Positions 2,844 through 34,834 of a DNA stretch of 64,000 nt are shown in pieces. Made by a program: the position numbers and the translations under genes. This DNA is from Parcubacteria group bacterium (lineage in GTDB: Bacteria > Patescibacteriota > Minisyncoccia > Phycocordibacterales > 21-14-all-47-15): positions 33,133 through 97,132 of the forward strand of contig JACOYO010000001.1 of the NCBI GenBank assembly GCA_016181845.1. Reading direction: 5' to 3'. The notes below the pieces were generated by a model, which worked only from the letters and a program-made list of their open reading frames with translations, did no database searches and had not been told where the DNA came from. How positions within the stretch are numbered: position 1 is the first letter of the stretch; each line of letters begins with the position of its first letter.

Positions 2844-4013
2844 TCAAATTACGCCAACAATAACTTTATTTAATTTCCGCCCCAAAACGCGATAATCCAA
2901 ACGCTTCGCACGAGTTAAAATATCTTTGGATAATTTGGTCCTCAAACGCTCATCCTCTCCGAGCCGATGGAGCTTTTCCGACAAATCTTTTGCGTCATCG
3001 GGCTTAAAAGTCAGCGCGGAACCTTCAGTCAACCATTCAAGCGCCCCTCCTCCTGGAATAATGCAGGGCATGCCAAACGCCATCGCTTCGGTCAGAAGCG
3101 CCGAGCCGTATTCAATCCACCATTTGGGGAAAATAAAAATCTGTGACGCGAGGAAAAAGTCAAACATTTTGTCTCTTGCCACCCAACCGGGAAATGAAAA
3201 ATATTTTCCCAAACCTGTCTCGCGCACCATTGCCTCAAGGCGTTCTTTGTCCGGCCCCCCGCCGCTCATGACAACACGATATTTTTCTTTATCCGGCAAA
3301 TCCGCAAAAGCCTTGATAACCAAATCAAATCCTTTTTCTTTAAACATCCTGCCGGTGCAAAATATGTTTACCATATCACTGGAATGCTGACGTTTTTCTA
3401 ATACCGCATCGGTAATATGGTTTCGTTCAATAATTCCCTCCATATCGACAAAATCTTCTATGACCGAGCATTTTTTGCCGTCTATGCCGAAATCTGTATA
3501 CATTTTTTGCACCATCGGCGTATTAAAAATGAACGCATCAAGATAATTGGCTATTGGGATACCAAATAGATGCTCCAAAAAAACTCTCATTTTCTTTTTC
3601 ACCGATTTCAGGAAAGACACCCGCTCCGGATTCCCCGTCATGTCCGCCCAGCAATTAAGCCTGATGTTAAAAAACGCCACTACCGGCTTTTTGCCGCCGA
3701 GCATCCGATACAGCCCGCCTCCGTACAAAAACATGTGCCCGTCTATATAAAAAGCGTCCGCGTCTTTTTCGTATTTTTTAAGCAAGCCATAGATGCCCTT
3801 CTGCATACTGAGTAAATTCCCTTTGGGCGCAATGTTTTCCTTTTTAACCGGATACGGTAAGTCAATCGTAATATTATTGGCACGAGAAAAAGCGGTCACG
3901 ACGGTGACCTCGTGCCCATGGTCAAGCAGACTTTTTGCTTTCCAGTGCAAATCCAGCACCGAGCCGCCCGCGGTTTCAAAATTCAGTTTTGAGGTAATTA
4001 AAATAATTCTCAC
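2844..4013 (-). CDS. Glycosyltransferase family 1 (GT4)
   Basis: GT-B C-terminal domain with an E..PL..EA-type motif region (EYGSALLTEAMAFGMPCI); ~390 aa. Confidence 0.75.
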   Translation of the reverse strand: MRIILITSKLNFETAGGSVLDLHWKAKSLLDHGHEVTVVTAFSRANNITIDLPYPVKKENIAPKGNLLSMQKGIYGLLKKYEKDADAFYIDGHMFLYGGGLYRMLGGKKPVVAFFNIRLNCWADMTGNPERVSFLKSVKKKMRVFLEHLFGIPIANYLDAFIFNTPMVQKMYTDFGIDGKKCSVIEDFVDMEGIIERNHITDAVLEKRQHSSDMVNIFCTGRMFKEKGFDLVIKAFADLPDKEKYRVVMSGGGPDKERLEAMVRETGLGKYFSFPGWVARDKMFDFFLASQIFIFPKWWIEYGSALLTEAMAFGMPCIIPGGGALEWLTEGSALTFKPDDAKDLSEKLHRLGEDERLRTKLSKDILTRAKRLDYRVLGRKLNKVIVGVI

Positions 4014-4390
4014 AAATTTACTTTGTCATTCATAAACGGTCCGTTTTTAATCTCAAAAATTTCCGAGTCTTCAAGCATCGTTATCGCGTGTCCGCCGGAA
4101 ACAAAAAGAAACGCCTCTCCGGCTTTTATGGGTACTGACGCCAGCCATTTTTTATTCGGAGTGTATAAATCGATTTTGACTTTACCTTTCCTGACAACCA
4201 AACACTCTTGGAGACTGGCGGTCGTTCTCTTTTTTGGAATGTGGGTATGCGGTTTTATTGAAACTCCCTTTTTATGCTTGAGGGTTAAAACCTGTAGGGC
4301 TTCAGAATCTCTGGTGATTGGGGTTACGTCCTGATTAAATTTTTGAATATGAATCCCTATGATTTCCTTTTTGTTTCTAAATACTTTCAT
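4010..4390 (-). CDS. Small cupin-fold protein (WbuC/FdtA-like), function unclear
   Basis: 126 aa; a His cluster (KPHTHIP) and beta-rich sequence typical of small cupins found in O-antigen loci. Overlaps neighbouring genes by 4 nt (operon). Confidence 0.35.
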   Translation of the reverse strand: MKVFRNKKEIIGIHIQKFNQDVTPITRDSEALQVLTLKHKKGVSIKPHTHIPKKRTTASLQECLVVRKGKVKIDLYTPNKKWLASVPIKAGEAFLFVSGGHAITMLEDSEIFEIKNGPFMNDKVNL

Positions 4391-4394
4391 GCGG

Positions 4395-5462
4395 CTAATC
4401 TATGCTAATACGTCTCCCTGGAGCAATCGAGGTGTGCAGTTCGGATTCTCGCTCGGCATGTTTTAAATCCGCTTCCGCCATCATTTGTGCCAATTTTTTA
4501 AAAGTAATTTTTGGTTTCCAACTCAAGACTTTCCGCGCTTTTCTTGGGTCTCCCAACAGTAAATCAACCTCGTTTGGTCTGAAATGTTTCGGGTCAATCT
4601 TGATAATAGTCTTGCCTGTTTTTCGGTCAACTCCCGTTTCTTTCAAGCCCCTGCCACGCCATACAATATCCATACCTAAATGATTCGCCGCCTCTTCGAC
4701 AAATTCCCGCACCGTGTGAGTCTCGCCGGTCGCAATCACGAAATCATCAGGCTTTTTGTGCTGTAAAATCTTCCATACAGCCTCCATATAATCTTTCGAG
4801 TATCCCCAGTCGCGTTTTGCATCAAGATTTCCAAGCATAAGCACCGGCTCAAGACCAAGCCTCACGCGCGACAAGCCAAGAGTGATTTTTCTTGTCACGA
4901 AATTAAATCCACGCCGCGGTGACTCGTGGTTAAAGAGAATCCCATTTGAAGCAAAGATGCCGTATCCATCACGAAAAATTTTTGTAATATGAAACGCAAA
5001 TACTTTTGAAAGCCCATACGGCGATTGAGGATTGAACTTGGTATTTTCATTTTGCGGAGTAGCGAGCACCTTGCCAAACATTTCAGAAGAGCTCGCCTGA
5101 TAGTATTTTGCCGGTAAATCAAAATTACGAATGGTTTCCAAAATGCGAAGTGGCCCGAGCGCATTCACATTCGCCGTATACTCCGGTTTATCAAAACTGA
5201 TTCGCACATGGCTTTGCGCCGCAAGGTTATAGATTTCATCCGGCTCTATTTTGTGAATAATACGGACCAAGTTAGAACTGTCAGATAAATCTCCGTATGC
5301 CATAAAAAGATTCGGGTCGGACAAATGGTCCAAGCGAATAGTATTCGGCATGCTTGAACGCCGCTGAATGCCATACACCTGGTATCCCTTCTCCAAAAGA
5401 AGCTCGGTCAAATATGAGCCGTCTTGTCCTGTTATGCCTGTGATTAATGCTTTTTTTGCCAT
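4395..5462 (-). CDS. gmd: GDP-mannose 4,6-dehydratase
   Basis: N-terminus ALITGITGQDGSYLTELLLEKGYQVYGI..RRSS and overall length ~355 aa match Gmd closely. Confidence 0.9.
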   Translation of the reverse strand: MAKKALITGITGQDGSYLTELLLEKGYQVYGIQRRSSMPNTIRLDHLSDPNLFMAYGDLSDSSNLVRIIHKIEPDEIYNLAAQSHVRISFDKPEYTANVNALGPLRILETIRNFDLPAKYYQASSSEMFGKVLATPQNENTKFNPQSPYGLSKVFAFHITKIFRDGYGIFASNGILFNHESPRRGFNFVTRKITLGLSRVRLGLEPVLMLGNLDAKRDWGYSKDYMEAVWKILQHKKPDDFVIATGETHTVREFVEEAANHLGMDIVWRGRGLKETGVDRKTGKTIIKIDPKHFRPNEVDLLLGDPRKARKVLSWKPKITFKKLAQMMAEADLKHAERESELHTSIAPGRRISID

Positions 5463-15384: not shown

Positions 15385-17235
15385 TTATATCGCATCCCGC
15401 CCATGGTGTGTAAAAACAAAAATCTTATACCCAAAAAAATTACCGAAAAATGCGATTGGGATTTCTATGGCAAGAGCTATATTTACCCATATCTTAGGGT
15501 CTATGCCATTAGGCGCGCCGATAACATTAACGATAATATGAAGCAAAAATATATTCAAGAGAGATGTGGCGCTCGTTATGGTAAAAAATTTAATGTACTC
15601 TGCTCTTCCGTTGTCGGTATTGTGCGCACGAAATGTCCAGAATTTATTCCAAAAAAAACTGTGCGTGATGGTAATTATTGAAGAAATGATCGTAAAAAAA
15701 ATCACCTGCCAGCCGCGCGCTATGTCGGTAAACCAAATAAAAAGATTGGTAATACCGGCAAAAAGAAACGTATTTAAAAGCCCTATCAATCCATATTTCC
15801 CAATTTGGAAAATTGAGGAACGCCACCGCATGCCCAATAGATATGCGCCGTATAAACCGGCAACGGTCATAAACGGAAGCAAAAAAAGCCAGAGTCCAAT
15901 TACAAAAAAGGAGAGCCCATGATTGTAGCGCGCTAATATGTCAAACACTTTTATATTTTGAAACACAGGAATAGAAAGCAGAGCGATGGCTTCCCCAATA
16001 ATAAGCGTCCGCCAAAAATCGGTTTTGGTGAACACTAAAATTTCTCCAAGTTCTTTATACGTGTTGCCTGACGTCTGGCGTAAAACAGTCCCATTATTAT
16101 GTAGGATGTTTTTCATAAAATGAATAATATTCGCGGCCCTGTTGCTCCAAGAATATTCCACCACGGTCTCTCGCGCTTTTTTTGAGAATGTTTTTAGAGC
16201 CGCGCAATCAGACAATCCGAAAACAGTCTTTTTTGCCAAATCGTTCGGGTTATCCGCATCAAAAAATATGGCCGTTGTTTCATGCAGTATCTCGCGTACA
16301 GCAGGCGTATCAGAAGCAATAATCGGCGTGCCAGAAGCCATATACTCAAAAAGTTTCATTGGTGAAGTGTACTCCCTTCCTATTTTCTCTTTTCCGCTTG
16401 TTGGCAAGACTAGCACATCCGCTGCTCTAAGCCACAACGGAATTTCCTGATGCTGGCGATGCCCGACAAAAATAATGTTTTTATATTTTATATTTTGTAT
16501 TTTGTATTTTGAAACTTCTTCTGCAGTGCCGCCGACGAGATATACGAGCATATCTGCATCCAATTTTTTTGCCGCCTCAATCAAAGTGTTAACACCCTTC
16601 CACTTGTAAAGATGTCCAGCGTAAAGAATGATTTTTTTATCAAGCGGAAGATTAAGCGTTTTTCTCGCGGCTTCTTTTGATATAACAATATCAAAACGCC
16701 TCAAATCAACGGCATCCGGCGCACAAAGTATTTTATCTTCAGAGACTCCAAAGCGCATGAGGTCTTTTTTTATGCCGTTGCTGATGACGACCAATCCCAT
16801 ACTTTTGCGCAAAACAAAATTGTGAAGAAACGATGACTTTTGAGGAAGTGTATGAAGCTCATAAAATATAGGCTTATGGAATAAAGCGAACAGAAACGCA
16901 ACCAAAAAATCACGGGTATAAAATACTGCGTCTTTTTCAAAAACCGCTCGCGCAATTGCCGACACGGAAAACGTAACGCTTTCAATCCAAAACCAAAGGG
17001 GTTTAAAAAAAGGAATCGGAATCAAATCCAAAACTGGCAAACGTTTGATATTGAATACTGCATCAACGCCATAATACAGAAAAGGGTCCTGTTTTATCGG
17101 GTTAAGCCTCCACGGCACAACAAGCGTAATTTCAATATCTTTCCCCTGTTTAAAGGCGCGTGCGGTATTCATAATCTGAACCCCGTGTGCTTTCTCCGTC
17201 GGCAAGCGAATATTTGCAATATATAAGAGTTTCAT
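15385..17235 (-). CDS. Fusion protein: N-terminal GT4 glycosyltransferase + C-terminal GtrA-like 4-TM membrane domain
   Basis: GT4 body (residues ~1-380) followed by hydrophobic helices ending YIKFFTITSATSLLNIFLLHIIVNVIG ... FFGNFFGYKIFVF (GtrA-like). Contains a heptanucleotide tract at 16484-16511. Confidence 0.65.
   Translation of the reverse strand: MKLLYIANIRLPTEKAHGVQIMNTARAFKQGKDIEITLVVPWRLNPIKQDPFLYYGVDAVFNIKRLPVLDLIPIPFFKPLWFWIESVTFSVSAIARAVFEKDAVFYTRDFLVAFLFALFHKPIFYELHTLPQKSSFLHNFVLRKSMGLVVISNGIKKDLMRFGVSEDKILCAPDAVDLRRFDIVISKEAARKTLNLPLDKKIILYAGHLYKWKGVNTLIEAAKKLDADMLVYLVGGTAEEVSKYKIQNIKYKNIIFVGHRQHQEIPLWLRAADVLVLPTSGKEKIGREYTSPMKLFEYMASGTPIIASDTPAVREILHETTAIFFDADNPNDLAKKTVFGLSDCAALKTFSKKARETVVEYSWSNRAANIIHFMKNILHNNGTVLRQTSGNTYKELGEILVFTKTDFWRTLIIGEAIALLSIPVFQNIKVFDILARYNHGLSFFVIGLWLFLLPFMTVAGLYGAYLLGMRWRSSIFQIGKYGLIGLLNTFLFAGITNLFIWFTDIARGWQVIFFTIISSIITITHSFFWNKFWTFRAHNTDNGRAEYIKFFTITSATSLLNIFLLHIIVNVIGAPNGIDPKIWVNIALAIEIPIAFFGNFFGYKIFVFTHHGRDAI
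16484..16511. repeat. Heptanucleotide simple sequence repeat (TATTTTG)x3-4 inside the GT4-GtrA CDS
   Basis: Reads tatttta tattttg tattttg tattttg. Coding strand (CAAAATA)n encodes KYKIQNIKYKN in frame. Confidence 0.8.
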
Positions 17236-22993: not shown

Positions 22994-23132
22994 TTATGAA
23001 ATAGTATTTTTAGCAGAGCCTTGCGGACCCCGACAGTTATCGTCGTGGGAGCAGAGCATCCGCCCTGGGCGGAAGCATCCGCCCTGGGCGGAATGCGTGC
23101 TGTGCGAGAAATACTATTTCGTAATTTATAGT
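22994..23132. repeat. MITE-like intergenic repeat element, divergent copy E4, containing a 19-bp tandem duplication
   Basis: GAAATAGTATTTTTAGCAGAGCCTTGCGGA aligns with the E1-E3 5' module. (GCATCCGCCCTGGGCGGAA)x2 at 23056-23093 matches the E3 hairpin. Ends with the family terminus TTTCGTAATTTATAG. Confidence 0.6.
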
Positions 23133-26289: not shown

Positions 26290-27770
26290 TTGAACGATTC
26301 AATACCATATTTGAAAAAGCAACCGGACAATACCTGCTTCAACTTACGTCAGGCAAAGCGGGCCTCTGGATTTCCGTATTGTTCATTTTTGTATTTATAA
26401 ATATTTTTTCCCTCTCGACACTTACGACAAAACCGGCGCTTTGGTATGACGAGGGAATAAATATAGAATTGGCGCGAAATTTTTCCGAATTTGGGAAACT
26501 TGATTTGATGGTTCGGCCGATGCAATTCTCCGGACAAGGCGCGCTTATCGGCTCAACTGGATACACAACCACGATTCCTCTTGCGGCATTTTTTAAACTG
26601 TTTGGCTTTGGACTGTCGCAGGCGAGAGTGTACATGCTCCTCTGGATGAACATCATGCTTTTCTGCTTATTTTATTTCGCGAGAAAAAAATGGGGCGTGA
26701 GTGTCGCTCTCGCCACATTATTTCTAGTCGCCACTTTCGCTCCTTTTTTTGGAAATGGCCGCAGTGTTATGGGAGAAATCCCCGGTTTTACGTTTTTGCT
26801 GCTTTCTCTTATTTGGTATACAGAAAAAAACAATCTATTTGGTGCGGGCTTTTTTCTTGGCTTGGCTGTGATAAGCAAGCCGTCCGTGTATGTTTTCTTT
26901 ATCCCAGCTTTTGTCATCTTGTTATTATTTGAAAAAAAAGATTTCTTTGCGCGCATTATTCGATCGGGTGCTGGCGCGGTATTGCCGCTTCTCATTTGGG
27001 CAGGCATATATCCCGACACTGCATTCTCCCCATCAACATGGAAAAGTTTGAGCGATCATGCGAGCAACCCATACGAGCAGGCGCAGGTCACTTCTTTAAT
27101 AAACATAAAAAATAATTTGGCGGCATTTTTTGAATCGCCAACCTTACTTTATTTCTTGCTGTTTGCAATCATAATCATAAGCGCCCTATACATAAAAAGA
27201 GATTTTTATGAACAGAACAAACAGATTATCATACTCACCGCCTCATACGGAATATTGGAATTTTTTTACTATTTAAAAAGCCTGGGCTATCTTCGGTATC
27301 TTATCGCCCTGCAATTCTTAATCTTCATACTCCTTGTCCCCGCTCTAGAGACGCTCGCGAGACGCTTCGCTCCTCCGCCATACGGCAGTATTGCCATACG
27401 CGCGTGCATAGCGATACTCGTATTGTTCCAAGCCGCGTATCTTTTTTCGGGGGCAAAACTTTTTTATTCGGACAGTTCACAAAAAACATTTCAATATCTG
27501 GAAAACAATTTTGAGGGGCAAATAATCGGTATCGTCAACCTGCCAACAATAGCAAGCCTTATTCCCTCAACCCAAAGAATGCAGACTATTTCTACATATG
27601 GGCTTGACAATGTGGGGGAACATCCTTTATCGCTTGTGGCGGAGGCCTTGCCGCCAGTTATTGTTTTTGAAAATAATCATGTCTTTGAACCCCAATACGC
27701 CGAGGTGTTAAAACAACATTATTTGCCGGAGAAAACAATCGGAAATATTTTGATATATCGAAAATATTAA
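26286..27770 (+). CDS. GT-C-family membrane glycosyltransferase (PMT-like)
   Basis: 12 or more transmembrane helices. First-loop motif LWYDEGINIELARNF (DE motif typical of GT39/PMT-like enzymes). Convergent with and overlapping a DPM1-like GT2. Confidence 0.5.
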   Translation: MIERFNTIFEKATGQYLLQLTSGKAGLWISVLFIFVFINIFSLSTLTTKPALWYDEGINIELARNFSEFGKLDLMVRPMQFSGQGALIGSTGYTTTIPLAAFFKLFGFGLSQARVYMLLWMNIMLFCLFYFARKKWGVSVALATLFLVATFAPFFGNGRSVMGEIPGFTFLLLSLIWYTEKNNLFGAGFFLGLAVISKPSVYVFFIPAFVILLLFEKKDFFARIIRSGAGAVLPLLIWAGIYPDTAFSPSTWKSLSDHASNPYEQAQVTSLINIKNNLAAFFESPTLLYFLLFAIIIISALYIKRDFYEQNKQIIILTASYGILEFFYYLKSLGYLRYLIALQFLIFILLVPALETLARRFAPPPYGSIAIRACIAILVLFQAAYLFSGAKLFYSDSSQKTFQYLENNFEGQIIGIVNLPTIASLIPSTQRMQTISTYGLDNVGEHPLSLVAEALPPVIVFENNHVFEPQYAEVLKQHYLPEKTIGNILIYRKY

Positions 27771-28483
27771 AAGTAAATATCAAAAAAAATCACGACGAAG
27801 TCTTTTATAATCCTCGGGATGTGCCCGAAGATACCGTAGACACTTTTTCTTTTCTCTTCACAAGTAACCGGAATTTCTTTTATTTTTAGGCCGGCACGAT
27901 TCGCGCGAATCAAAAATTCAGTATCAAGCAAATCGCGATGAGTCTTGCATTGGCTGAACACGGGGGCCGCTTTCTCTCGGTTAAAAATCTTGATGCCGTG
28001 GGTATCAGTCCCCGGATACCGAAAAAGCGCCCGCAACGCGAAATTAAATATTCGGTTGAGCATCCTTCTTGAAAGCGGCCTTAGGTCATGGGCTCCCGGC
28101 ATAGATTTAGAGCAAACGACAATATCGCTCTGCTCCTTTTCAAAAGAAACAAGCGCTTTTTTTACTGCATCCATGTCCCAAAAATCAATATTGAACACGG
28201 CAATATATGCGCCACTGCTTTTCAAAACACCTTGTTTAAGGGCGTTCCCGTATCCGGCAACCGGCAGAGATATGAGGCGTATTTGCGAATATAGAGAGGC
28301 AAGTTCTTTTGCAATCAATACCGTATTGTCAGTGCTGCCGTTTTCCACTAAAATAATTTCGTAGTCAGCACGGTACAAAAAAGTCTCCACCGCCACGATA
28401 ATCTTTTCAATTTCGGTTTTTAAAATTTCTTGCTCGTTATAAACGGGAATAACGATGGATAATTTCTTAGTGTCATGTTTCAT
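27767..28483 (-). CDS. GT2 polyprenyl-phosphate sugar synthase (DPM1-like)
   Basis: LSIVIPVYNEQE ... LVENGSTDNT ... DxD motifs; ~238 aa. Confidence 0.8.
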   Translation of the reverse strand: MKHDTKKLSIVIPVYNEQEILKTEIEKIIVAVETFLYRADYEIILVENGSTDNTVLIAKELASLYSQIRLISLPVAGYGNALKQGVLKSSGAYIAVFNIDFWDMDAVKKALVSFEKEQSDIVVCSKSMPGAHDLRPLSRRMLNRIFNFALRALFRYPGTDTHGIKIFNREKAAPVFSQCKTHRDLLDTEFLIRANRAGLKIKEIPVTCEEKRKSVYGIFGHIPRIIKDFVVIFFDIYF

Positions 28484-28511: not shown

Positions 28512-29561
28512 TCATTTTTCTCTATTGAGAAGGTCGGTCATTTTTTTTATGACAGAGACGCCGCTGTGGTTTTGTATCACCAGAGACTGAAGCTCGCGGA
28601 GTTCATATTTTGAGGCCGTCTTGATTTCTAATATTTTTTGGACAATATAATCTGCGTTGGTATTCCGCAAAAGATGTTTTTCTGGCAACATTGCAAAAAA
28701 AGCTTCGTTTGAAGTGAGCACGTTAACCCCTGACGCCATCGCTTCAAGGACCGCCTTATCAAGACTTCCGGTTTCGCTCAAATTGATAAAGAGATCGCTT
28801 TTTTGATAAAAGGAGTGGATATCGGAATACGAAACCGCGCCAACAAAAAACACGCTGTCATCTATCCCCTTCGCTTGTATCTCTTTTTTTAATCGAATGA
28901 AATAGTCATAATCCGCATTTGTAATCGGCGCCCCGACAATTTTCATTTCAAAAGAAACGCCTTCTTTTTTCAAAAGTTCTGCCGCTTCAAGCATCATGTG
29001 AATATTTTTTGCCGGCGTAATTCTACTGACAGAAAGAATATTCAATTTTTCGTGCGGCCACTTGTCCACCGGATGAAAACGCTCCGTATCAATCCCATGT
29101 CCTACTACATGCACCTTGTCGCTTTTCAAACGAAAACTTTCTTTTGAGGCGGTAAAGATAATATCGGATAATTTTTCCGCGACGCGCAATTTCATATCAA
29201 CCTGTTTGTGCGTATACCATAGCGCAATTTTTTTAGACAAAAGTTTCCAAAACACACCTCCGAGCAAAATATATATCGGATTCATGTGCACGAAGACCGT
29301 ATCGTAATTTTTTTTCTCATTCCAGATATATCTATAAAACCTTGCGATATATCGAAAGGTTTTTATTACAGTGGCACCAGCAAATTCTTCTTTGCCGAGC
29401 GATAATACGGAAACATTCTGCGGCAAATGGTATTTGCCTTTTTGCAAACAAATAACCGTAACTTTTTCAGCATGCTTGGCAAATTCTTCAATCCACCGGA
29501 CAAAAAAACCGAGGTTGTCGTCCTGTTCGTCCACTTTTTGAGTTATGATAAGCAGTCGCAT
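28512..29561 (-). CDS. Glycosyltransferase family 1 (GT4); contains the 28-bp palindrome, copy A, in frame
   Basis: C-terminal GT-B domain (GSLDKAVLEAMASGVNVL); ~349 aa. The palindrome encodes KTFRYIARFY. Confidence 0.8.
   Translation of the reverse strand: MRLLIITQKVDEQDDNLGFFVRWIEEFAKHAEKVTVICLQKGKYHLPQNVSVLSLGKEEFAGATVIKTFRYIARFYRYIWNEKKNYDTVFVHMNPIYILLGGVFWKLLSKKIALWYTHKQVDMKLRVAEKLSDIIFTASKESFRLKSDKVHVVGHGIDTERFHPVDKWPHEKLNILSVSRITPAKNIHMMLEAAELLKKEGVSFEMKIVGAPITNADYDYFIRLKKEIQAKGIDDSVFFVGAVSYSDIHSFYQKSDLFINLSETGSLDKAVLEAMASGVNVLTSNEAFFAMLPEKHLLRNTNADYIVQKILEIKTASKYELRELQSLVIQNHSGVSVIKKMTDLLNREK
29334..29366. repeat. 28-bp near-perfect palindrome AAAACCTTGCGATATATCGAAAGGTTTT (copy A), inside the GT4 CDS
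   Basis: Same palindrome at 42936-42966 and 49363-49393. Confidence 0.85.
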
Positions 29562-29567
29562 AAAAAA

Positions 29568-30677
29568 TTACAAATAAATAGCGCATGACTCCCACTGTTT
29601 TTTATATACCCGAAGATACTCTTCTTTTGAAATTTCATTTGATGCGCGTGTGAATCGCCCGCCGCTTGAAAGAGCCGCTGACAACGAGTCCGCGAGGCAG
29701 ATGGAATTGCCGACAGAGCATATAAAAACACCATCTCCTGAAACGACATCTCCCGCAATCCCCACATCAGTGGTTACTATGGGCAACCCTGCCCTATACG
29801 CCTCCACAAGCGAGAGCCCGTATCCTTCATAAAATGATGTGTGAAGATACACGTCGGCGGCGGCATAATAAGATGCAATTTCTTTTTGAGAGCCGACAAA
29901 TATAGCGCTGTCTTCCAATTTGAGATTTGAGATTTGGGACTTGAGATTTTTTCTCTCGCTTCCGTCACCAACAACAAGAAGCCCAGCTTTGGGATATGTT
30001 TTAATAATTTTTTCAAACACCTCAATCGCACGGGCAACATTTTTTTCCGGCTCAAGTCGCGAGACAACAAGAACGATTTTTTCAAACTGTGGAAACTCTG
30101 CGCGGACACGGCTGCCGTCCGCATTTTTGAATTTTTGAACATCGGTGAAAATCGGCAGTACGGCAATCGGCGCATTGGTGAATCCACTGATAGATTTTTT
30201 AATTCGCTCCGACACCACGCGGACACAATCGGCTTTGGGCAATAAAAATTTCGCAACCATCACCCGAATTTTATTTTTGATATTTTCCGCGGCAAAATAG
30301 TGGCTCATGAAATCGGTATGTACCTGCAGCTCAAGCCGCGCGCCAAGAGCGCGCGAGACGCGCCATCCGGCAAAACCGGTTTCAAACGGGTTTTGGCAAG
30401 TAACCAGGAAATCATGAGTCATGAATAATGAATCATGATTGATGCGCTTCGCGATTTTGTATGCGTCAAAAATATACAGCCAGCGGCTCAAAGAATTTGT
30501 GGAATAAATGAAAACATTGTCTGAAATCTTGATTCTTGATTCTTGATTCTTGATTCTTGCGCGGAAAATTATAATATGCAATTCTTCACACAATCTTCCA
30601 TACTCAATCATCCTCGCGCGCACCGCCGAGTCTTTTTCAAAAATTTTTGAATCAGTTGATAGCATTAGTACTCTCAT
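29568..30677 (-). CDS. Glycosyltransferase family 1 (GT4), paralogue 1 of a tandem pair, with two heptanucleotide tracts
   Basis: GT-B C-terminal domain (YGLSLVEAYRAGLPIVTT). Shares the peptide ERKNLKSQISNLKLE with the next gene. Confidence 0.8.
   Translation of the reverse strand: MRVLMLSTDSKIFEKDSAVRARMIEYGRLCEELHIIIFRARIKNQESRIKISDNVFIYSTNSLSRWLYIFDAYKIAKRINHDSLFMTHDFLVTCQNPFETGFAGWRVSRALGARLELQVHTDFMSHYFAAENIKNKIRVMVAKFLLPKADCVRVVSERIKKSISGFTNAPIAVLPIFTDVQKFKNADGSRVRAEFPQFEKIVLVVSRLEPEKNVARAIEVFEKIIKTYPKAGLLVVGDGSERKNLKSQISNLKLEDSAIFVGSQKEIASYYAAADVYLHTSFYEGYGLSLVEAYRAGLPIVTTDVGIAGDVVSGDGVFICSVGNSICLADSLSAALSSGGRFTRASNEISKEEYLRVYKKQWESCAIYL
29918..29952. repeat. Heptanucleotide repeat (GAGATTT)n, interrupted (gagattt gagattt gggactt gagattt), in GT4 paralogue 1
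   Basis: Coding strand AAATCTC units encode ..KSQISNLK.. in frame. One unit is degenerated by synonymous changes. Confidence 0.8.
30528..30560. repeat. Heptanucleotide repeat (TCTTGAT)x4.7 in GT4 paralogue 1
   Basis: Four perfect units plus a partial unit. Coding strand (AGAATCA)n encodes RIKNQESRIKIS. Confidence 0.85.
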
Positions 30678-31837
30678 AGTTGTTTAAAAAATTGAGTTAA
30701 ATTCTCAAGCATTTTTTCTTTTGAAAATCCCGCCGCTTTTTCACGCGCCGATTTTTCAAAACGCTGGCGCGCCACTGTCACATCCGCCAGTATTTCAATG
30801 ATTGCTTCTGCAAGAGCTTTTTTATCTTGATGCGTCACCAACCGCCCTGAAACGCTGTCTTCAATCAATTCAGAATTTCCGCCTACACGGGTCGTAACCA
30901 CGGGCACTCCCAAAGCCATCGCCTCAAGAATAGTGTGCGACAACCCTTCGTATCCGGTATTTAGCACGAATACATCCGCCACCATTAAATAAAGCATAGT
31001 GTCGTCGTGCGACAATTGCCCGATTAAGAATACGCTATTCTCCAATTTGAGATTTGAGATTTGAGATTTGAGATTCTTTCTTTCCGGCCCATCTCCGATA
31101 ATGTAGAGTTTTGCCTGCGGATATTTTTTTACTATTTCAGAAAACATTTCTATTAATGTTTCAAATCCTTTCCACGAAACAAGCCGCCCGATAGACACTA
31201 GTATCTCTCCTGGCCAGTCCCGCCCTTCAACGCGAGCCGGGGCGGACAAAAGAAGTCTCGCGCGAGCTTCATCGTGAGTGATATTTTGTTTCGGTAATTC
31301 AAACGCGTTATAGATAACTTCTACTTTTTCTGGAGCAACCCCCCATCCGTACACAATAATTTTTTTCAAATATTCGCTCGGCACAACTATCTTGTCCGCA
31401 TAGCGCGCCACATATTTTTGTATAGACCTACGCATTTCAATCCCAAGAGAATATTTTTTTCCCTGAAATTCATCCAACAAATCATATTCCTGATTTCTGA
31501 TTCCTGATTCCTGATTCACATATTCTTCCCACGCGCGGTCTCCTACAATTTTTACCACAAATTTTTTACCAAGTATTTTGGCGGCGCACAATGCGGGCAA
31601 GCCGACACCGAGCGGGTCTTGCGCGAAAATAATACCCGCCTCGGCTCCAGCGCGAAGCAGTTTGAAAAAATAAAAAAGATGTTTTACGCCAAAAGGCCAT
31701 TTTTTTACATCGCTCAATTTCACCACGGCAACCTGAAACCCACGGAGCGAGAGCTCGCGTTCCAAAAGAGCGGTGTATGTGGCCGGTCCGCCGATTTCGG
31801 GCGGATAGAGCGGTGTAGCAATAAGTATTTTTTGCAT
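30674..31837 (-). CDS. Glycosyltransferase family 1 (GT4), paralogue 2 of the tandem pair, with two heptanucleotide tracts
   Basis: GT-B C-terminal domain (YEGLSHTILEAMALGVPVVTT). Start taken at MQKILIATPLYPPEIGG; the ORF track extends to 31870 through a palindromic site. Confidence 0.8.
   Translation of the reverse strand: MQKILIATPLYPPEIGGPATYTALLERELSLRGFQVAVVKLSDVKKWPFGVKHLFYFFKLLRAGAEAGIIFAQDPLGVGLPALCAAKILGKKFVVKIVGDRAWEEYVNQESGIRNQEYDLLDEFQGKKYSLGIEMRRSIQKYVARYADKIVVPSEYLKKIIVYGWGVAPEKVEVIYNAFELPKQNITHDEARARLLLSAPARVEGRDWPGEILVSIGRLVSWKGFETLIEMFSEIVKKYPQAKLYIIGDGPERKNLKSQISNLKLENSVFLIGQLSHDDTMLYLMVADVFVLNTGYEGLSHTILEAMALGVPVVTTRVGGNSELIEDSVSGRLVTHQDKKALAEAIIEILADVTVARQRFEKSAREKAAGFSKEKMLENLTQFFKQL
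31049..31076. repeat. Heptanucleotide repeat (GAGATTT)x3 plus GAGATTC in GT4 paralogue 2
   Basis: Four tandem units. Coding strand (AAATCTC)n encodes NLKSQISNLK in frame. Confidence 0.85.
31489..31516. repeat. Heptanucleotide repeat (CCTGATT)x4, one imperfect, in GT4 paralogue 2
   Basis: Reads cctgatt tctgatt cctgatt cctgatt. Coding strand (GAATCAG)n encodes NQESGIRNQE. Confidence 0.8.
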
Positions 31838-31846
31838 AAGTTTATA

Positions 31847-31869
31847 TGTTGGACATCGGATGTCCAACA
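31847..31869. promoter_or_regulatory. 23-bp perfect palindrome TGTTGGACATC-G-GATGTCCAACA, ~10 nt upstream of the GT4 paralogue 2 start codon
   Basis: Perfect dyad symmetry. Positioned over the expected RBS / 5'UTR. Confidence 0.5.
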
Positions 31870-31902
31870 ATATCGTATGTTTTACTTAACCATCTTCAAC
31901 TT

Positions 31903-31937
31903 CCAAACTGTTGGACATCCGATGTCCAACAGTTTGG
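31903..31937. promoter_or_regulatory. 35-bp perfect palindrome CCAAACTGTTGGACATC-C-GATGTCCAACAGTTTGG, second copy of the same dyad core
   Basis: Shares the core TGTTGGACATC N GATGTCCAACA with the site 34 bp downstream. Abuts the E2 repeat. Confidence 0.5.
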
Positions 31938-32168
31938 AAGAAACTCGCTCTCTATCATAGTTTTTGAGAGACATTGCGGAGCCCACAGGCGAGCATAGCA
32001 AATCCTGCTCGCAAGCAGGTTCTGAAGCGAATATTTGAAGCTTCAGAAAACCTTTTGAGAATTTTTGCAAGTTTTGCGAAGTAAAAAATCCAAAAGGTGT
32101 ACTAATCCTGTAAGGATTATGCGCGTCTATCAAAAACTCATGATGAGGAAGAGTTTCGTAATTCATAG
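31938..32168. repeat. MITE-like intergenic repeat element, copy E2 (longest copy, ~230 bp)
   Basis: 5' module CTATCATAGTTTTTGAGAGACATTGCGGAGCCCACAGGCGAGCATAGCA. Hairpin AATCCTGCT-cgca-AGCAGGTT. About 100 bp of extra internal hairpins. 3' module ATGCGCGTCTATCAAAAACTCATGATGAGGAAGAGTTTCGTAATTCATAG. The 94-aa ORF 31882-32166 within it is treated as spurious. Confidence 0.7.
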
Positions 32169-33371
32169 TAAAGCAAACATTCGCTCAAAAACTTTTTCTT
32201 TCATTTGTTTAGCTATTATGTTCCAATCATATTTTTCTAGAACCATAGCCCGAGCATTCGCACTAATTTTTTCTTTCAATGCTTTATCTTCCATAAGCCG
32301 CTTCACTTGCACGGCAACGCTTTCTGGGTTATCCACCTCGCAAAAAAGCCCCGTCCCTTCGTCTTTCAAAAAGTCGGTAATGCCGCCAACTGGAGTACCA
32401 ATCACCGGCAACCCAGCCGCCATCGCTTCAATAAATGAGTTCCCCATGCCTTCTGAACGTGACGGGCGTACAAAAATATCAGCGATACTTAAATAACGAG
32501 GCACTTCGGCGCTATCCACCGATTTTATAAAAACGATTCGCTCCGACACGTGCTCTCTTTGAGCAAGCGCACGAAGGAACGCTTCATCCGGCCCTGCCCC
32601 CACAACAAGAAATTTCACATGTGAAGGCAAAAACGCGAGTGAGCGAATGACATCATCAACAGCGTTCTTGTGTACCAGGCGCGACGTGGTGATAAGCAAT
32701 ATATCATAACTAGAAAATCCGAGGGTGGCGCGCGCGTTCTGTCTCTCTTCTTTTGAAACATTTTGAGAAAATAGCGCCACATCAACGCCGTTTGGGATAA
32801 CTTCAGTGTGGCTTCTATACTTCATTGTCTTTTTTGCGAATACTTCAATCAAAAATGTGGAGATACCCTGAATGATGTCGGCTCGGTCAAAAATTTCTTG
32901 AAACCACCCACGCGCAAAACGCACGCGCCGCAAAATATGTGCTATCGGGTCACCCTCCTGCAAAGCCAGCACAAATGGCACATGAGGAAACTTCTTTTTG
33001 AAAAAAAGAGCGGCAAATCCGGCGTAATTTGCCATGATAGACCACACGGCATCATACGGATTCTCCCGATGCAGTTTTTTTGCGTATAGCGCCGCCAAAA
33101 AAGGAAATAAATATTTATTGATAGACAGAGGAAACCGAATTACCATATCTTTTACGGAACCTTTTTTTAATTCCGTAAATCCGATTCGGTGGACATTCAC
33201 GTTTCCAATTCTTTCATACCGCGGCAAATCAGAACTCAACCGGAGCGTGATCATATCAAACAGAAAATCCGGAAGCCGGTCCGTAATATTTCGCACCGCG
33301 ACTTCCGCTCCGCCCACAAACGGCTCGTACATGAGAGAAAATATTAAAATTCTTTTTTTATTTTTTTCCAT
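32163..33371 (-). CDS. Glycosyltransferase family 1 (GT4)
   Basis: GT-B C-terminal motif SRSEGMGNSFIEAMAAGLPVIGT; ~400 aa. Confidence 0.8.
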   Translation of the reverse strand: MEKNKKRILIFSLMYEPFVGGAEVAVRNITDRLPDFLFDMITLRLSSDLPRYERIGNVNVHRIGFTELKKGSVKDMVIRFPLSINKYLFPFLAALYAKKLHRENPYDAVWSIMANYAGFAALFFKKKFPHVPFVLALQEGDPIAHILRRVRFARGWFQEIFDRADIIQGISTFLIEVFAKKTMKYRSHTEVIPNGVDVALFSQNVSKEERQNARATLGFSSYDILLITTSRLVHKNAVDDVIRSLAFLPSHVKFLVVGAGPDEAFLRALAQREHVSERIVFIKSVDSAEVPRYLSIADIFVRPSRSEGMGNSFIEAMAAGLPVIGTPVGGITDFLKDEGTGLFCEVDNPESVAVQVKRLMEDKALKEKISANARAMVLEKYDWNIIAKQMKEKVFERMFALL

Positions 33372-33373
33372 TT

Positions 33374-34834
33374 TTATTCTACAATTTTGATGTCATCGGC
33401 GGTTAATTCTTCGCCATCTTTTTTCCTACTGAAAACGATGCCACCGACGGCAGTCAGCGTGATGCCGAGTACGCCCAAACCCCATAACCATGGCGAATAA
33501 CTTGACGCTTTTGGTAACTCCTTGACTGCGGGTAATGTTGCCGCAAGCGCAAGCACCGCCTCCTTTTTTGTTGTTTTGGTTTCCTGCGGTACCGGCAAAA
33601 AATCCTTATTTGAAGCCGTTAATTCTGTTTTTTGCAGCAATGACGCGCTTATCTGCGATTGAGATGAAGAGACTCTGCTCCGCGCAATAGGAGCCGCTTC
33701 TTCCACTTCAGTATACACCACGACGACTTCTCCGTTTGGATACAACAACGAAACCTCTTCTCTGTTCACAATAGGAAGTTTCGTAATTCTAAACGGAAAA
33801 ATTATCTTCGCGCCCGACAAAAGAAATGTATTTTTTGGAAAAGTAAAATATAAGTTCCCGGATTTTAGACGCCACCATGAAAGGTCAAGATCGCGAAGAG
33901 TCTTATTGTAGAGTTCAATAAAAGAATCAGCACCCGATGCGACACGAGAAATAATAATGTCAGCAGGCAACGCGTTGACTGTTAAAAAATCACTCGCGGC
34001 ATATTTTCCGGAAGACACGTCAAGCACGATACGATATTTGCCAGGATACAAAAACGCATGGAGCACTGATGCCCCTTCAATAGACGCACCGTCTCCAAAA
34101 CTCCACACAAACCGCGCGTCCTCAAGCGGTTTTCCAGCCGTGCCAATCGCCTTGCCCGAAAAAAGAGTGTCCGCGCCGACAATCACTTCTCTGTCATTCC
34201 CCGCAAAAGCGGAAATGCTATTGGTGTCAATGCTCCAGATGGAAGCACTTTCTGAAACAGCCGCTGACGATTCCTTTGGCGACTCACCTGCTGTCGTTGC
34301 ATCATTTGTAGTCTGTGCCATCGTATCAAGCGTCGTTGACGCCGCTTGCCATACGCCGTTTATCAATTGGAGAGATTTGCCGTCGCCGTTTGCGCCAAGC
34401 GCAGTGGTGTAGGAAGCCGTGTCTCCTGTTGAACCATCCGGCAAAACAAGCGCGACAGTATACACATTGTCATTCTGCTGTCCTATGTTCATAACAGTAT
34501 CAATCACGGAAATAGAAACCGTGTATTCGGCGACAAATTGCACCGCATCAGAAGCAAGAATTGCATACCCATGTGGAGAAAAAATCATTGAGCCAGTTCC
34601 TCCGTTTTTTGGCGGAGCATTCAACACATGATTGGAACCGTCATTAAATTTCCAGCCGGTTAAATCCACCGACTCTGTTCCATCATTGTATATTTTAATC
34701 CATTCGCGTCCGGCATCAGCACCTGGCAAGTCATACATGATTTCTACAATCCGCACGGAGGCATGCGTACAAAACGGCAAAAAAATTAAGACAAAAAGAA
34801 ATACAATTTTATACATTGTATAGAATTGTAACAA
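33374..34834 (-). CDS. Membrane-anchored surface protein with two lamin-tail-domain (LTD)-like modules and Ser/Thr-rich linkers
   Basis: N-terminal signal/TM segment. VRIVEIMYDLPGADAGREWIKIYNDGTESVDLTGWKFNDGSNH is an LTD signature. Second LTD-like segment IIISRVASGADSFIELYNKT..LSWWRL. C-terminal TM helix plus charged tail. First gene of the GT4 operon. Confidence 0.6.
   Translation of the reverse strand: MLQFYTMYKIVFLFVLIFLPFCTHASVRIVEIMYDLPGADAGREWIKIYNDGTESVDLTGWKFNDGSNHVLNAPPKNGGTGSMIFSPHGYAILASDAVQFVAEYTVSISVIDTVMNIGQQNDNVYTVALVLPDGSTGDTASYTTALGANGDGKSLQLINGVWQAASTTLDTMAQTTNDATTAGESPKESSAAVSESASIWSIDTNSISAFAGNDREVIVGADTLFSGKAIGTAGKPLEDARFVWSFGDGASIEGASVLHAFLYPGKYRIVLDVSSGKYAASDFLTVNALPADIIISRVASGADSFIELYNKTLRDLDLSWWRLKSGNLYFTFPKNTFLLSGAKIIFPFRITKLPIVNREEVSLLYPNGEVVVVYTEVEEAAPIARSRVSSSQSQISASLLQKTELTASNKDFLPVPQETKTTKKEAVLALAATLPAVKELPKASSYSPWLWGLGVLGITLTAVGGIVFSRKKDGEELTADDIKIVE

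Follow-up and report, generated by a model that had tools for sequence, protein, structure and literature searches.

The DNA analysed here, a 64-kb stretch hereafter called the window, belongs to an uncultured groundwater bacterium of the Parcubacteria and carries short tandem arrays of a 7-nt unit (heptamer tracts) inside genes encoding GT4-type glycosyltransferases. These tracts are real, repeated at the DNA level, in frame and specific to GT4 genes, and the observation of them is correct and highly non-random. Among near-identical orthologues of one of these genes, the loss of a single unit was found to have split the gene on three independent occasions, and comparison of the sequences indicates that the tracts are real frameshift hot spots. 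Possibly, they act as on/off switches for the sugar coat of the cell surface. A preliminary description of this DNA had read them as phase-variable switches, and this reading is partly supported by the results below. Patescibacteria are tiny and mostly uncultured, and many are attached to other cells; repeat-driven switching of sugar transferases is a hallmark of host-adapted pathogens. No report of repeat-driven phase variation in Patescibacteria was found in the searchable literature.

Heptamer tracts and their DNA-level repetition

Tandem Repeats Finder and an exact-periodicity scan of the window both recovered the four in-frame 7-nt tracts that had been described in two adjacent GT4 genes (GT1 and GT2), at positions agreeing with the earlier ones to within a few bases. 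Two further tracts had been overlooked, namely a fifth tract in a third GT4 gene and a decayed tract in GT1. The genes and tracts are as follows.

15385-17235, third GT4 gene: 616 amino acids (aa), GT4-type NCBIfam matches, bears the fifth tract
16479-16511, minus strand, fifth tract: TTTTATA/TTTTGTA, coding strand TATAAAA/TACAAAA, 4.7 copies, in the third GT4 gene
29568-30677, minus strand, GT1: 369 aa, GT4 fold, Pfam Glycos_transf_1 and Glyco_transf_4, bears tracts A and B and the decayed tract
29918-29949, minus strand, tract A: ATTTGAG, 4.6 copies, 84% matches, exact run 29918-29936, at the C site of GT1
30410-30438, minus strand, decayed tract: AATCATG-like, 81% matches, at a second N-domain site of GT1
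30527-30559, minus strand, tract B: TCTTGAT x4.7, exact, coding strand (AATCAAG)x4.7
30674-31840, minus strand, GT2: GT4 fold, Pfam Glycos_transf_1 and Glyco_transf_4, bears tracts C and D
31045-31075, minus strand, tract C: ATTTGAG x4.4, exact, coding strand (AATCTCA)x4.4, at the C site of GT2
31486-31517, minus strand, tract D: ATTCCTG x4.6, 92% matches with one mismatch, exact run 31497-31517, coding strand (AATCAGG)x4.6, at the N site of GT2

The window contained four exact 7-nt tracts of at least 21 nt, compared with none in 200 third-order Markov simulations of 64 kb, and no tract of three or more copies was present in it at any other period from 5 to 12. The simulations and the period scan rule out a chance origin. 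All six tracts fell in three of the seven GT4-like open reading frames (ORFs), a class making up 14.7% of the ORF residues of the window. The peptide repeats read earlier as NLKSQIS, RIKNQES and GIRNQES were recovered as NLKSQISNLK (tract C), RIKNQESRIK (tract B, where the encoded RIKNQESRIKI follows strand beta-2 in the N-domain of GT1) and NQESGIRNQE (tract D), and the fifth tract encodes SKYKIQNIKYKN at the C-site helix in the C-domain of the third GT4 protein. An array given as (CCTGATT)x4 at 31489-31516 stands as a tract, with one mismatch rather than as a perfect repeat. The coding-strand unit of tract A is of the AAATCTC type, interrupted by two synonymous changes (aag tcc); this break is real, as had been noticed, and the syntenic locus L001 has a perfect (AAATCTC)x4.6 there. 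At the site homologous to the decayed tract, perfect tracts were found in L138, L139, L149, L152, L156 and L195.

The GT2 protein is a 100% match to P0001 and the GT1 protein is identical to P0183, both entries of a Parcubacteria metagenome-assembled genome. The two proteins share an identical 15-residue block, ERKNLKSQISNLKLE, at an equivalent structural site, from which close paralogy had been implied. This proved wrong: GT1 and GT2 are only 31% identical, which rules out close paralogy as the cause of the common block, and they represent separate orthologous families, with a GT1-type gene directly downstream of the GT2 orthologue in L001 and L002. The block consists of a heptamer tract with a handful of adjoining codons and was not inherited through paralogy.

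Whether the repetition resides in the DNA or only in the peptide had been named as a point on which the switch reading could fail, and it came out at the DNA level. The 30 nt of tract C were identical in L001, L002 and L130. Between the window and L130, all 30 of the 30 tract bases were equal despite a third-codon identity of 0.37 over 180 flanking bases, and identity across such saturated flanks indicates that the repeat is in the DNA and not only in the peptide. The GT2 orthologue of L002 is 51% identical, yet has the same perfect C-site tract, and orthologues of about 50% identity in general kept either the same perfect heptamers or other perfect heptamers at equal sites. These results bear on a protein-level account, in which selection keeps a 7-residue peptide and the DNA periodicity is incidental. 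The C-site peptides do all keep a hydrophobic i/i+4 pattern suiting a helix, but the repeat is a perfect 7-nt and not a 21-nt one, codons are identical across saturated divergence, the peptide repeats only about 1.4 times, and other homologues have unrelated peptides that are again encoded by perfect 7-nt repeats. A peptide conserved with differing codons was therefore not what we found, and the L002 and L130 identities, together with the unrelated perfect units of homologues, refute this account, to which we attach practically no weight.

In an AlphaFold2 model of GT2 (pLDDT 94), the C-site tract formed the entire helix 253-262, between strands 243-247 and 269-273, and the N-site tract formed the end of helix 101-110 and a low-confidence loop at 111-120. 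The tract sites are thus a surface-type helix and a low-confidence loop, suggesting that the tracts occupy permissive segments. The fixed length of the C-site helix may also be the reason why the in-frame copy number was always about 4.4-4.7.

One-unit losses in GT2-family orthologues

Adding or removing 7 or 14 nt truncated all five ORFs, including GT1, GT2 and the 616-aa GT4 gene, whereas 21 nt kept the frame. The expectation that one-unit variants would truncate the GT4 ORFs was therefore borne out, with one or two units truncating and three units not. For the fifth tract, gain or loss of one unit truncated the third GT4 protein at about 246-253 aa.

A first on/off census of 80 metagenome loci contained no frameshifted tract. 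Since it retained the best-scoring matches alone, this census was biased with respect to the query gene, and off alleles emerged only on inspection of the members of 90%-identity protein clusters. At the N site, L269 has (AATCTCA)x3 and L131 has four units; across about 1,420 nt the two differ by three single-nucleotide polymorphisms and a single gap of 7 nt. At the C site, L270 has (GGCAAGC)x3 compared with four units in L271-L276 (six contigs from six samples), and the 7-nt gap was the sole internal difference in about 1,220 nt. At the N site again, L277 has (ATTTCCA)x3 compared with four units in L151 and L152, to which it aligns at 99.4% identity across 1,657 nt, the only gap being one of 7 nt. 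The part of the gene downstream was intact in L269, L270 and L277. The on and off alleles had been assembled from the ENA samples ERZ27245644 and ERZ27245685, ERZ27293362 and ERZ4903072. These three 4-to-3-unit alleles are independent, and each splits a GT2-family gene; two further GT2-family split genes were not tract events.

Three one-unit losses in near-identical DNA show that single-unit slippage inactivates GT2-family genes in nature, so that single-unit null alleles were caught in three natural populations of one GT4 family. Because L270 differed by the 7-nt gap alone, the indel rate of the tract would be well above the per-site substitution rate, and a one-unit slipped-strand loss can dominate an assembly. 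As the slip was demonstrated in orthologues at the same sites, the tracts of the window very likely slip as well.

In L270-L276, toxin-antitoxin genes of the PIN and RHH types lie on either side of the GT2-family gene that has the on and off alleles.

Lineage-wide distribution and turnover of the tracts

The survey set comprised 80 Parcubacteria loci (568 kb) obtained via the GT2 family and, consisting of best-scoring matches only, was biased for the query gene. Period 7 was the sole enriched tandem period, with 94 exact tracts of at least 2.5 copies, and periods 5, 6, 8, 9, 10, 11 and 12 gave 13, 11, 0, 3, 0, 0 and 0 tracts. When the window, L001 and L002 were included, 105 of 108 tracts lay in GT4-like ORFs, which accounted for 50.4% of the ORF residues. 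Tracts recurred after AWEQ.. (N-domain), after GDGPE.. (C-domain), after VVSERI.., before ..QDPFE and after NGVD/HGID, and the C-site and N-site tracts stood at about 65% and about 11-30% of gene length. The lengths of exact runs were bimodal (18-23 nt, decayed; 27-36 nt), none exceeding 36 nt within ORFs, and the copy number was always about 4-4.7. The units varied widely, including AAATCTC, AAATCTA, AATTTCC, AAATCCG, ACAAATT, AACCTAC, AAGCGCA and others. Period-7 peptide runs of 10-12 residues were found in about half of the 120 homologues of each family (GT1 and GT2), giving 150 runs, where shuffled proteins gave 18 and other periods 15-32; the same 7-base architecture thus occupies fixed sites in roughly half of the members of two GT4 families. 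Taken together, these counts indicate that the tracts of the window belong to a lineage-wide pattern.

The content of the tracts turned over at these sites. The nearest relative, L001, is a syntenic Candidatus Lloydbacteria contig (88% DNA identity). As a perfect repeat, (AAATCTC)n occurs in it at four places, namely both C sites (GT2 and GT1), the GT2 N site and the third GT4 gene. The cluster is about 92% identical between the window and L001, with three sharp drops of identity. At the first, the GT2 N site, L001 has (AATCTCA)x4.7 plus 18 nt between identical flanks where the window has AATCAGG, and at the second, in the third GT4 gene, the counterpart of the L001 tract in the window is non-repeat sequence. 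The third is a block of about 190 nt in GT1 (about 30410-30600), which is 25-48% identical to L001 5400-5560 between flanks of about 92% identity and spans both N-domain tract sites; no tract was found in L001 at the site of tract B. This block looks like an exchanged or hypervariable module. In related pairs of 84-93% identity, tract content was likewise swapped wholesale between conserved flanks, with length changes in frame (e.g., AATTTCC in L167 and AAAAACG in L172, at 93% identity). In L158 and L169, one base was altered in most copies, as would be expected if copies were homogenised. In the GT1-family 90%-identity clusters, tract peptides differed as whole cassettes (P0229 vs P0350/P0351; P0275 vs P0334), for example LELKTKNLKLE vs LELSAIGYKLSA and ATSYQLPATSS vs TTNYQLPTTNW, which indicates very fast turnover of tract content.

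A rival explanation would make the tracts recombination junctions, serving as microhomology for in-frame exchange or deletion of GT4 modules and shuffling acceptor- and donor-binding parts. The common block ERKNLKSQISNLKLE at the equivalent site of two proteins of 31% identity would agree with this, as would the single unit of L001 at four sites in three adjacent genes and the position of the only long divergent GT1 block between, and including, two tract sites. Units were also shared more often between sites of one locus (14% identical) than between loci (3.5%), with p = 0.03 in a permutation test on units differing by at most one base. However, in most genomes the unit differs from one site to another, no hybrid gene with its junction at a tract was found, a homology of about 31 nt is marginal for homologous recombination, and across eight pairs of related loci only about one third of the blocks of low identity coincided with tracts, a result on which tract-bounded mosaic recombination was rejected. 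We consider recombination junctions very improbable.

The same cassette-like replacement between identical flanks, with little or no net change in length (AATCAGG and AATCTCA in the window and L001, L167 and L172, and the third GT4 gene), and the narrow tract length of 27-36 nt might instead reflect active writing of the tracts or a very small mobile element. A dedicated mechanism, for instance a retroelement or templated synthesis during repair, would then replace about 30 nt at each defined site by a new heptamer array. Against such a writer, the tracts have no conserved flanks or termini, many different units occur per genome, and no candidate enzyme was identified. Several of the unit differences are small (about 1-3 of 7 positions) and, by a rough estimate, fit stepwise drift with homogenisation near the neutral rate. 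Between L158 and L169, a single-base change was present in most copies. This explanation, too, seems to us highly unlikely.

A broader proposal would place glycan switches throughout the phylum Patescibacteria, with fixed GT4 slots refilled with heptamer arrays of about 30 nt by dedicated whole-array replacement rather than simple slippage, giving dozens of independent switches per lineage in which the architecture and not the sequence is selected. We hold this proposal to be very unlikely.

Possible frameshift switches, possible slippage by-products and known repeat systems

On balance, we think it somewhat probable that the tracts are selected, reversible frameshift switches in permissive GT4 segments. 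Low-copy heptanucleotide microsatellites would sit in structurally permissive parts of the enzyme, where the nascent strand would mispair by one 7-nt unit during replication, and the gain or loss of a unit would shift the frame and yield a truncated, inactive enzyme until a second slip restored it. About four units would be fixed in frame where the tract fills a fold-constrained segment, such as the 10-residue helix of the C site, and slippage or out-of-register repair would keep the copies alike while the unit drifts or is replaced. Several genes of one glycan cluster could then behave as independent stochastic switches, producing cells with different surface sugars, and mixed surface sugars might be useful against phage or in host attachment. 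We infer that the off state reverts and that the arrangement is kept by selection for switchability. If switching is indeed reversible and selected, it would provide a large built-in diversification of surface glycans, plausibly for these same uses.

Several observations weigh against switching. Tracts were in frame in 91 of 92 non-redundant cases (the exception being merely the normal end of the rplV gene) and in all 53 cases in neighbour genes that had not been used to choose the loci. The length polymorphism in 7-nt steps anticipated in the preliminary description was present in the GT2-family orthologues (L269, L270 and L277) and absent among seven contig pairs of at least 99% identity, in which no tract differed in length. 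For the GT1 and GT2 proteins of the window, the 90% clusters have one member each, so that the polymorphism is known from orthologues. The variants seen were minus-one alleles only, with no plus-one allele and no reversion. In ten GT1-family clusters, split genes were broken at positions outside tracts, indicating that such genes are also lost through ordinary mutations. Many tracts are mid-gene, and the 5'-end bias common in contingency loci was not seen in the heptamer tracts; three or four tracts occur in one gene in L195, L139 and L152, which is more than a switch needs. About four units are present here, compared with 6-38 in proven heptanucleotide switches (PMC2651432). Finally, (AAATCTC)n of other bacteria was found in frame in LeuRS (in the editing domain), Fmt (Met-tRNA formyltransferase), an M16 peptidase, a UvrA-like protein, LysA and TrpF (L060 414-3233, L027 6433-7359, L024 4898-6217, L098 2-3241, L103 1523-2731 and L112 3528-4157). 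In essential or housekeeping genes such as these, switching would be harmful and cannot be the purpose of in-frame heptamers.

Most of these points also suit a non-adaptive origin, which we regard as possible without expecting it to be correct. The tracts would then be a by-product of a general 7-nt slippage bias, arising and being homogenised wherever a segment accepts arbitrary sequence. They would persist in dispensable GT4 genes through tolerance of out-of-frame intermediates, and the minus-one alleles would be ordinary gene losses of mildly deleterious or neutral effect rather than a selected switch. The in-frame state of nearly all alleles, the breakage of GT1-family genes by non-tract mutations and the presence of several tracts in one gene agree with this, and in about 60% of the tracts decay has already left exact runs of just 18-23 nt. 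A heptamer excess occurs genome-wide in many bacteria, in which heptanucleotides are the most abundant class of long microsatellites, and polymerase slippage has been proposed as its cause (Mrazek et al. 2007, as cited in PMC4692102 and PMC4679880). The tracts studied here represent a clean natural case of this unexplained bias inside coding sequence.

With one genome per species, (AAATCTC)x3 gave at least 120 loci, most of them intergenic. The matches listed included Cyanobacteria (many Microcoleus), Planctomycetota, Verrucomicrobiota, Acidobacteriota, Bacteroidota, Patescibacteria, Nitrospirae and Chloroflexi, with at most one or two each for Proteobacteria and Firmicutes and none for Actinobacteria; among them, (AAATCTC)n usually had about 3.5-5 copies, and arrays of 47-144 nt lay only outside long ORFs. 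The flanks of the at least 120 copies shared nothing, and control heptamers of the same composition were likewise repeated. In viral contigs, 33 matches were found for the heptamer compared with 22, 6 and 5 for such controls. The AAATCTC unit is therefore favoured but not unique. Its spread over many phyla, given the repeated controls and the lack of shared flanks, is mostly a general excess of heptamer repeats, and a specific mobile element behind it is ruled out on the same grounds. The tracts have no conserved termini or flanks of the kind that mark a miniature inverted-repeat transposable element (MITE) or other small mobile element. A search of the literature for the exact repeat sequence found nothing.

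What a by-product explains less readily is the confinement of 105 of 108 tracts to GT4 genes, as none occurred in the GT2-type transferases, PMT_2, epimerases and methyltransferases of the same clusters, which are presumably equally dispensable. Perfect repeats also last at one site across saturated divergence, although synonymous breakage is easy. Three of about nine observed gene disruptions fell in tracts, which by a rough estimate make up 5-8% of gene length.

Glycosyltransferases governed by simple sequence repeat (SSR) contingency loci include lic2A and lgtC of Haemophilus influenzae with tetranucleotides, those of Campylobacter jejuni with poly-G, and lgt and pgl of Neisseria, including the heptanucleotide tract of pglE. 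As in such loci, the tracts combine a unit that is not a multiple of three, beyond chance, within the ORF of a surface-glycan transferase with a shift of frame on a change of unit number, in-frame and split alleles occur among near-identical sequences (here GT2-family orthologues), and several genes per cluster are involved. Unlike those loci, the tracts have only about four units, in an invariant in-frame number. They stand mid-gene at fixed structural sites common to several GT4 families and many Patescibacteria lineages, their architecture persists as the unit changes, assemblies rarely contain off alleles, and the organism is an environmental candidate-phyla bacterium. In combining fixed sites and a fixed length with a variable unit across GT4 families, the tracts depart from classical contingency loci.

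In-ORF repeats of Borgs reportedly have units that are multiples of three and cannot cause frameshifts. The tracts resemble the Borg repeats (PMC9879509) as fast-evolving perfect DNA repeats that add or replace permissive or disordered protein segments, and differ from them in having a 7-nt unit, not divisible by three, and tracts of at most 36 nt.

The tracts of the window reach the threshold of three units for heptamers (PMC2651432). In H. influenzae, (TGAAAGA)13-38 lies upstream of hmw1A/hmw2A, (AACAACC)1-13 at a TonB-dependent receptor gene and (AATTTTG)14 inside hmw1A (PMC2651432); the unit is likewise 7 nt and differences in unit number between strains truncate ORFs, but those arrays are long, freely variable and mostly in or near promoters, whereas here four units lie in the ORF and change only from four to three. 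Among the heptamer SSRs mentioned in PMC4692102 and PMC4679880 are three tandemly repeated heptanucleotides of the cyanobacterium Calothrix PCC 7601, TAACTGA in Beggiatoaceae, Cyanobacteria and Bacteroidetes, and GGGAATC in Xanthomonas. The SSRs of Mrazek et al. (2007), as cited there, share with our tracts a strict period of 7, 2-6 copies, a unit that recurs in distant phyla, and unit and length variation among close relatives. Most of those SSRs lie between genes, and roles in regulation or structure have been proposed for them, whereas nearly all tracts here are in frame at conserved sites of GT4 coding sequence. The over-representation of period 7 relative to other unit lengths, which characterises long heptanucleotide SSRs, was found here as well.

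The run of glycan genes around GT1 and GT2 includes two more of the GT4 type (28512-29561 and 32163-33371) and one of the GT2 type (27767-28483), and a gene at 33374-34834 encodes an LTD/PKD surface protein. NCBIfam gave no specific function for any GT4 gene of the window. Immediately upstream of GT2, two perfect 23-nt palindromes (31847-31869 and 31909-31931) were confirmed; the copies are 62 nt apart, and the second lies within a 41-nt palindrome. Between GT2 and the GT4 gene upstream of it, a stretch of 332 nt (listed as 31871-32162) contains a 94-aa ORF without a Pfam match and is absent from L001, where the genes overlap. No further palindrome copy was found in the window or in 277 loci, leaving the earlier label of a MITE-like element unverified, and the Rfam matches around the locus were sub-threshold hairpin matches on the palindromes only.

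Other small elements were observed in the window and in related loci. At 23055-23093, an intergenic gap contains a perfect 19-nt tandem duplication (AGCATCCGCCCTGGGCGGA x2.1) with a GC-rich hairpin, TCCGCCCTGGGCGGA, resembling the CCGCC/GGCGG hairpins of related loci. In a related Parcubacteria group, GC-rich hairpins CCTGCC-N5-GGCAGG (read as ..AGEAGL..) were inserted in frame in GT4 genes (L129 5344-5360; L132 1521-1537 and 1641-1657; L135 5541-5557; L140 969-985 and 2304-2320; L126 6777-6793), and some in-frame GC hairpins lay within or beside heptamer tracts. CCGCC-N3-4-GGCGG hairpins likewise occurred in GT4 genes (L155 7075-7139). These GC hairpins look like a second class of tiny in-frame insertions. 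In addition, L129 (about 2980-3050) and L135 (about 4357-4412) carry a repeat with a 16-nt period, AAAGTCCATAAGGTCG x2, at the NGVD site, which holds heptamer tracts in their relatives.

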